Shown in pieces: positions 2,699 through 3,090 of a DNA stretch of 64,000 nt. Every line of letters begins with the position of its first letter. Within the stretch, counting starts at the first letter, position 1. The translations under genes were made by a program, and so were the position numbers. Origin of the DNA: Escherichia coli (GTDB lineage: Bacteria > Pseudomonadota > Gammaproteobacteria > Enterobacterales > Enterobacteriaceae); assembly GCF_030384885.1 (NCBI RefSeq), contig NZ_CP128613.1; one strand, written 5' to 3'. Under the pieces are notes generated by a model that did no database searches, was not told the DNA's origin, and worked only from the letters and a program-made list of their open reading frames with translations.

Positions 2699-3090
2699 AG
2701 GGGCTTCATCCGAATTGCGCCATTGTTGCAATGGCGGTTTTTATTGTTTTTCACGACAGTAACCGCACCTACACTGTCATGACATTGCTCGCCCCTATGT
2801 GTAACAAATAACCACACTGTGAATGTTGTCTTTAATCAATTGTAAGTGCATGTAAAATACCACTTTAGAGTTAGTCAGTATCTTCCTCTTTTTCAACAGC
2901 ATGCATAACTGCATGTTCCTCAAAGAATTAATCAACTTTTGTTGCTGACCTTCAAAAATTACCCTGCCGTTTATTTGCACAATTCTACTTTTGCGTGATC
3001 TGTCGCCCAAATACTAAACAAAACTGCCAATACCCCTACATTTAACGCTTATGCCACATATTATTAACATCCTACAAGGAGAACAAAAGC
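2699..3090. promoter_or_regulatory. Divergent nrfA/acs control region
   Basis: 392-bp non-coding region between divergent nrfA and acs; FNR-like half-palindrome TTGTC-N4-ATCAA at 2826-2839; TACCCCT NarL-type heptamer at about 3033; acs SD AGGAGA at 3077-3082. Known from K-12 to bind FNR, NarL/NarP, CRP, Fis and IHF. Confidence 0.7.

Follow-up and report, generated by a model that had tools for sequence, protein, structure and literature searches.

The 392-bp spacer between nrfA and acs (positions 2699-3090 of the window, by which we mean the whole 64,000-nucleotide stretch of Escherichia coli DNA analysed here) is identical at 392 of 392 positions to that of E. coli K-12 MG1655 (NC_000913.3). 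We interpret it as the K-12-identical, shared back-to-back control region of the leftward nrfA promoter (pnrf) and of the rightward acs promoters acsP1 and acsP2, a reading to which we assign a probability of roughly 97%. Since the spacers are identical, every site mapped in K-12 is present in this strain at the same offset. The alignment covered window positions 2650-3140, and the sole difference in the 491 aligned bp affects acs codon 2 and is synonymous (AGC in MG1655, AGT here); coordinates of the two sequences are interconverted as window = 2698 + 4287764 - K-12 coordinate. An earlier note on this DNA had named the two genes, placed a divergent control region between them and proposed alignment with K-12 as the check; the genes and the region are confirmed, and the alignment revealed no mapped site at a shifted position. 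The limits of the region are as follows.

2699-3090, nrfA on the - strand and acs on the + strand: nrfA-acs intergenic spacer, 392 bp
2696-2698, - strand: nrfA start codon, the A of the ATG being 2698 (the RefSeq annotation of strain 2013C-4282 puts nrfA at 1262-2698)
3091-3093, + strand: acs start codon, from sequence reading and annotation transfer

The arrangement is typical of the species: of 5426 complete E. coli genomes, 5413 contain the stretch 2600-3200, in every case annotated as acs and nrfA. Over its entire 64 kb, the window shares 99.98% identity with E. coli 2013C-4282, which was isolated from human stool.

The region belongs to the best-dissected promoter integrators of bacteria, at which oxygen, nitrite/nitrate, nutrient quality, nitric oxide and catabolite signals are combined. 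It is already thoroughly characterised in K-12, and the present strain adds no novelty at the level of sequence, so that the result has little bearing beyond annotation. The K-12 work on nrfA-acs reportedly includes Tyson 1994, Kumari 2000, Browning 2002, 2004, 2005, 2006 and 2010, and Beatty 2003. A further K-12 study of pnrf, which also dealt with the pnrf of EHEC, is that of Godfrey et al. 2017 (PMC5434802).

Layout and conservation of the divergent promoters

The transcription start of pnrf was derived from a published substitution, p+102A, which turns an Arg codon AGG into AGA (PMC5434802). As nrfA codon 3 is AGG and is the codon changed by p+102A, +1 corresponds to position 2791 and +94 to the A of the ATG. 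On the acs side, the acsP1 and acsP2 sequences of PMC2759082 match the window letter for letter, and the acsP2 start determined there by 5'RACE coincides with the previously published one. The promoters and their sites are arranged, from left to right, in the following way.

2791, - strand: pnrf transcription start (+1)
2798-2803, - strand: pnrf -10 hexamer TACACA (-12 to -7), the K-12 allele, from alignment with MG1655 and EDL933
2799-2813: Fis I site GTGTAACAAATAACC, centre 2806 (-15 of pnrf), overlapping the -10 element, the site through which rich-medium repression acts in K-12; predicted from consensus fit
2826-2839: FNR site, TTGATTAAAGACAA as read on the - strand, centre 2832.5 (-41.5 of pnrf and -34.5 of the divergent acsP1)
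2840-2857: spacer between the FNR and NarL/NarP sites, with the acsP1 -10 region TAAAAT at 2853-2858
2858-2873: NarL/NarP 7-2-7 site TACCACTttAGAGTTA (TACCACT-TT-AGAGTTA), centre 2865.5 (-74.5 of pnrf), covering the acsP1 start
2867, + strand: acsP1 transcription start, a weak distal promoter, -224 from the acs ATG (PMC2759082, Table 1)
2938-2959: CRP II site of acsP2, a weak match (GTTGC-N6-TCAAA), centre 2948.5 (-122.5), computed from the acsP2 start at 3071 and the published offset
2991-3012: CRP I site of acsP2, core CGTGA-TCTGTC-GCCCA, centre 3001.5 (-69.5)
3031-3037, + strand: heptamer TACCCCT, agreeing with TACYYMT by chance; it lies -40 to -34 relative to the acsP2 start and -240 to -246 relative to that of pnrf
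3059-3064, + strand: acsP2 -10 hexamer TATTAT (-12 to -7 of the start at 3071)
3071, + strand: acsP2 transcription start, a C at -20 from the acs ATG (PMC2759082)

The spacer shows no differences from K-12, and the two strains have in common the offsets of FNR (-41.5), NarL/NarP (-74.5), Fis I (-15) and CRP I/II (-69.5/-122.5), together with the distances of acsP1 (-224) and acsP2 (-20) from the acs ATG. A simple sigma-70 consensus scan of 2600-3200 found no promoter; no such match is expected, because these are activator-dependent promoters with poor -35 elements.

For a phylogenetic footprint, one genome per species was scanned with a pattern anchored in the N-terminus of acs. Among the 48 loci obtained, the divergent nrfA-acs pair was present only in Escherichia (two species besides the window) and Citrobacter (15 species), and these 18 spacers were aligned. 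The numbers of invariant columns were as follows.

NarL/NarP 7-2-7 site: 16 of 16
FNR site: 12 of 14
FNR-NarL spacer, 2840-2857: 16 of 18
CRP I: 19 of 22
acsP2 -10 hexamer: 6 of 6
CRP II: 10 of 22
segment 2874-2937: 19 of 64

Citrobacter thus shares with the window the divergent arrangement of nrfA and acs as well as conserved FNR, 7-2-7, CRP I and acsP2 core sequences. It differs in an insertion of 33-41 bp, found in all 15 species just upstream of the NarL/NarP site (at about window position 2884, within the segment 2874-2937). Upstream nucleoid-protein sites of K-12, such as IHF III, may be absent from Citrobacter, much as reported for Salmonella. Salmonella Typhimurium, compared here by its published description, has the same divergent nrfA/acs arrangement as E. 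coli; additional sequence is inserted upstream, the IHF III site is lacking and CsrA behaves differently (PMC5434802).

Regulator sites of the nrfA promoter

The NarL/NarP site of K-12 is centred at -74.5 of pnrf (PMC5434802), and at this offset the window carries TACCACT-TT-AGAGTTA. This sequence has two mismatches to the degenerate 16-mer and is the sole 7-2-7 match in the window, although as a bare motif it is statistically not unusual. The earlier note had instead singled out a NarL-type heptamer near 3033; we correct this assignment in favour of the mapped site at 2858-2873.

Arguments can be found for the heptamer TACCCCT as a functional NarL/NarP target, serving either the nitrite/nitrate control of pnrf or, as an operator of acsP2, a connection of acs to nitrate. 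It matches TACYYMT perfectly, a protein bound at -40 to -34 of acsP2 could block RNA polymerase, and the block overlapping it, CCCCTACATTTAAC, is conserved (11 of 14 columns invariant in the 18 species). However, matches to TACYYMT occur in the window at chance frequency (34 observed versus 29.8 +/- 5.6 expected), and the heptamer has no inverted partner, the partner position 3040-3046 (ATTTAAC) agreeing with AKRRGTA at only two of seven bases by direct reading. It also lies beyond the upstream end (-209, window position 3000) of the fragment pnrf53, which suffices for anaerobic and nitrite induction (PMC5434802). Finally, none of the three columns of its TAC is invariant in the 18 species (Citrobacter has AGC, AAC or GGC there, and one Escherichia species CAC), whereas the 7-2-7 site is invariant throughout. 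On these grounds the heptamer was rejected as a NarL/NarP target, a role that we consider highly improbable. The conserved block CCCCTACATTTAAC fits the acsP2 -35 region rather than a NarL heptamer, and a link between acsP2 and nitrate through TACCCCT is less likely than the leader-based control of nrfA considered below.

The sequence between the FNR and NarL/NarP sites (2840-2857) presumably also contains the targets of IHF (IHF I, at -54) and of NsrR, which overlap; both were reportedly placed there by Browning et al. 2006 and 2010. IHF I represses pnrf, and NarL/NarP displaces IHF (PMC5434802).

The -10 element of pnrf is the place at which natural variation is known to matter. Base -7 (window position 2798, read on the nrfA strand) is A, as in MG1655, while EDL933 has T. 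The T of EHEC confers higher pnrf activity and approximately 8-fold more FNR-independent expression, together with a rich-medium repression of only 2.2-fold for the EHEC allele compared with 5.8-fold for that of K-12 (PMC5434802). This A to T change at -7 in EHEC O157 is the only natural change known to affect regulation; the promoter architecture of EHEC O157:H7 is otherwise alike, its spacer differing by a single base (TACACT, as against TACACA in the window and in K-12). The K-12-type pnrf core was found as an exact 61-mer in 3520 E. coli records from complete genomes, and the EHEC-type core in 296. The EHEC hexamer is written as TATACT in the text of PMC5434802 and reads TACACT in the EDL933 genome, a discrepancy that leaves the T at -7 unaffected.

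One might suppose that the pnrf of the present strain is rewired in the manner of EHEC, with a better -10 element that makes it partly independent of FNR and lets it escape the Fis-mediated repression in rich medium, given that its closest genome is a human stool isolate from a CDC-style naming series and that the 601-bp stretch is 99.5% identical to EDL933 versus 99.2% to one K-12 derivative. The lower identity to this derivative, however, is due to the derivative's own mutation at acs -93 and to changes in the coding regions, the whole spacer equals that of MG1655, and the only position that matters, -7, carries the K-12 base. An EHEC-type promoter is ruled out by this base, and the probability that we leave to an EHEC-like pnrf is negligible. 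With TACACA in place of the EHEC hexamer TACACT as its pnrf -10 element, this strain should retain strict FNR dependence and rich-medium repression.

By direct reading, GTGTAACAAATAACC at 2799-2813 fits the degenerate Fis consensus, GNNYRNNWNNYRNNC, and the predicted Fis I site is centred at -15. Fis I was described as overlapping the pnrf -10 element, with the EHEC change at -7 just beyond the site (PMC5434802), and the position of 2798 relative to 2799-2813 agrees with this published placement.

The FNR site of K-12 is centred at -41.5 of pnrf (PMC5434802), and occupation of acs/nrfA by FNR in vivo was demonstrated by ChIP-chip (PMC1802558). In the window, TTGTCTTTAATCAA at 2826-2839 is an exact centre match to the published site. 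The proposal of an FNR site in an activating position for the leftward nrfA promoter therefore stands, by identity and by offset: it is the mapped site itself. Its description as a one-mismatch site is valid only for the TTGA-N6-TCAA core; compared with the full TTGAT-N4-ATCAA there are two mismatches (TTGTC versus TTGAT), and TTGATTAAAGACAA matches 8 of the 10 consensus positions. A 61-mer spanning the FNR and NarL/NarP sites was found unchanged in 4539 of 5414 E. coli records from complete genomes. Nothing further on the nrfA-acs locus was found in an FNR ChIP-seq paper (PMC3688515) or in a comparative paper (PMC1805755).

We regard this FNR site as real because its sequence and offset are identical to those of the mapped K-12 site, and not because of its motif score: with up to two mismatches allowed, FNR-like sites are common (51 in the window versus 34 +/- 6 in shuffles), and the bare motif is not beyond chance. 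This abundance would suit a functionless chance match, but such a match is scarcely credible for a site that is identical to one proven in K-12 by mutation, footprinting and ChIP and that is nearly invariant over two genera. By analogy with K-12, pnrf is most probably an FNR-activated class II promoter in this strain as well.

The annotated gene ytcB is situated within the same sequences.

2795-2851, - strand: ytcB, 18-codon ORF MHLQLIKDNIHSVVICYT (b4821; MG1655 RefSeq 4287611-4287667)

This ORF overlaps the FNR site and the pnrf -10 element. As ytcB lies entirely upstream of the pnrf start, its expression would call for another transcript, as yet unmapped. ATA replaces the ATG in 12 of the 15 Citrobacter species, and with the start codon lost in most of this genus ytcB was rejected as a conserved coding gene. 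A literature search on E. coli ytcB yielded nothing. The conservation of the ORF seems better explained by the overlapping protein-binding sites, and a functional peptide is less likely.

The acs promoters and the proposed regulatory logic

CRP-like sequences are found at two offsets from the acsP2 start at 3071, -69.5 and -122.5, in the manner of a class III promoter with two sites; these offsets are reportedly those of Beatty et al. 2003. The 61-mer containing CRP I is present without change in 5335 of 5412 E. coli records from complete genomes. In the 18-species alignment the right half-site of CRP II is conserved and the left half variable. The first CRP site of acsP2 includes position acs -93, where A is the conserved base (PMC2763269); the window has this wild-type A at 2998. 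The reported complete repression of acsP1 by FNR (PMC5434802) is accounted for by the position of the FNR site at -34.5 of this promoter and by the NarL/NarP site, which covers the acsP1 start.

Variants of the acs side were observed in other genomes. In PG20180058, a K-12 derivative from mouse gut (NZ_CP043203.1), acs -93 in CRP I is changed from A to T. The same change is reported for JA122, a chemostat ancestor in which it reduces the induction of acs (PMC2763269). In the E. coli BL21 record NZ_CP170101.1, the locus 2892-3124 (approximately window 2991-3090), containing acsP2, CRP I and the acs leader, has been replaced by about 230 bp comprising an intI1-like "integrase" fragment and an integron Pc-type promoter, which looks like deliberate strain engineering and not natural variation.

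Judged by its sequence, the cis-logic of the strain is of the K-12 type, and we infer protein binding and regulatory output from the published K-12 work, alongside the identity, offsets and conservation documented above. In the absence of oxygen, FNR bound to TTGATTAAAGACAA at -41.5 would activate pnrf as a class II activator, and the same bound FNR, located at -34.5 of the weak divergent acsP1, would shut the latter off. The nrfA promoter would be held down by IHF adjoining FNR and by Fis placed over the -10 element (centre -15); displacement of IHF by NarL/NarP at -74.5 in response to nitrite/nitrate would then permit full induction, and a high level of Fis in rich medium would override all other signals. 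CsrA bound to GGA at the nrfA start would lower translation. Roughly 200 bp further right, acsP2, the main acs promoter, would be activated by cAMP-CRP bound at -69.5 and -122.5.

A comparable logic is known from the promoter of the E. coli nir operon, with class II FNR at -41.5, repression by the nucleoid proteins IHF and Fis, and anti-repression by NarL/NarP acting through an upstream 7-2-7 site. The nir promoter differs from pnrf in the NarL/NarP offset (-69.5 versus -74.5), in its location at another locus and in having no divergent acs promoters.

The genes of the trans-acting factors (fnr, narL, narP, narX, narQ, crp, fis, ihfA, ihfB, nsrR and csrA) lie outside the window, and nothing in the sequence argues against the K-12-type reading. 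The result for this strain is a specific negative one: it has neither the EHEC change at -7 nor a mutation at acs -93, so that its nrf/acs cis-regulation can be assumed to be K-12-like.

The nrfA leader and other parts of the window

Folding of the untranslated leader of nrfA gave the following features.

2699-2791, - strand: nrfA 5' untranslated leader, 93 nt, with two hairpins flanking an A-rich tract
2751-2782 (+10 to +41), - strand: leader hairpin 1, from folding
2718-2736 (+56 to +74), - strand: leader hairpin 2, from folding
2689-2691 (+101 to +103), - strand: GGA of the CsrA-binding motif (PMC5434802), in nrfA codons 3-4, identical to MG1655

The tract between the hairpins is of the ARN type; shortly downstream of this arrangement come the CsrA GGA motifs. 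When 14 distinct leaders from Escherichia and Citrobacter were compared, all 19 hairpin pairs proved unbroken, with exceptions confined to the top pairs, namely alignment gaps in hairpin 1 and one A-C in hairpin 2. Compensatory changes affect two pairs of the consensus structure, one in hairpin 1 and one in a short outer helix, and many one-sided changes proceed through G.U pairs that are valid only in nrfA-sense RNA. Folded as a single sequence, the leader does not stand out (z = -1.2). A search of 2400-3400 against Rfam yielded nothing beyond an lncRNA match that was below threshold and without meaning, and no description of the hairpins was found in the accessible literature. That they might take part in an undescribed post-transcriptional control of nrfA, through mRNA stability, Hfq and sRNA action or the presentation of the CsrA motif, is a doubtful proposal, which we make with great reserve.

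On the opposite (+) strand, antisense to the leader, a hairpin followed by a T-run resembles an intrinsic terminator (2718-2751; 0.2 such matches expected in shuffles). A terminator on this strand was rejected for 2718-2736, where C-to-U changes giving U.G pairs fit nrfA-sense RNA instead. The pattern of these changes suggests that the terminator-like match is the mirror image of leader hairpin 2.

Annotation transferred from 2013C-4282 revealed several further genes in the window. Between tyrB and alr (approximately 22690-24250) there is a gene for an AAA-family ATPase together with pnuC, and between alr and dnaB (approximately 25475-26610) there are two hypothetical genes; neither pair is known from K-12 at these positions. 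A frameshifted DUF2713 gene is located between dusA and zur (approximately 31060-32070), and an intact gene of the SopA family, encoding a pentapeptide-repeat, effector-like protein, between ubiC and malM (approximately 40100-41680).
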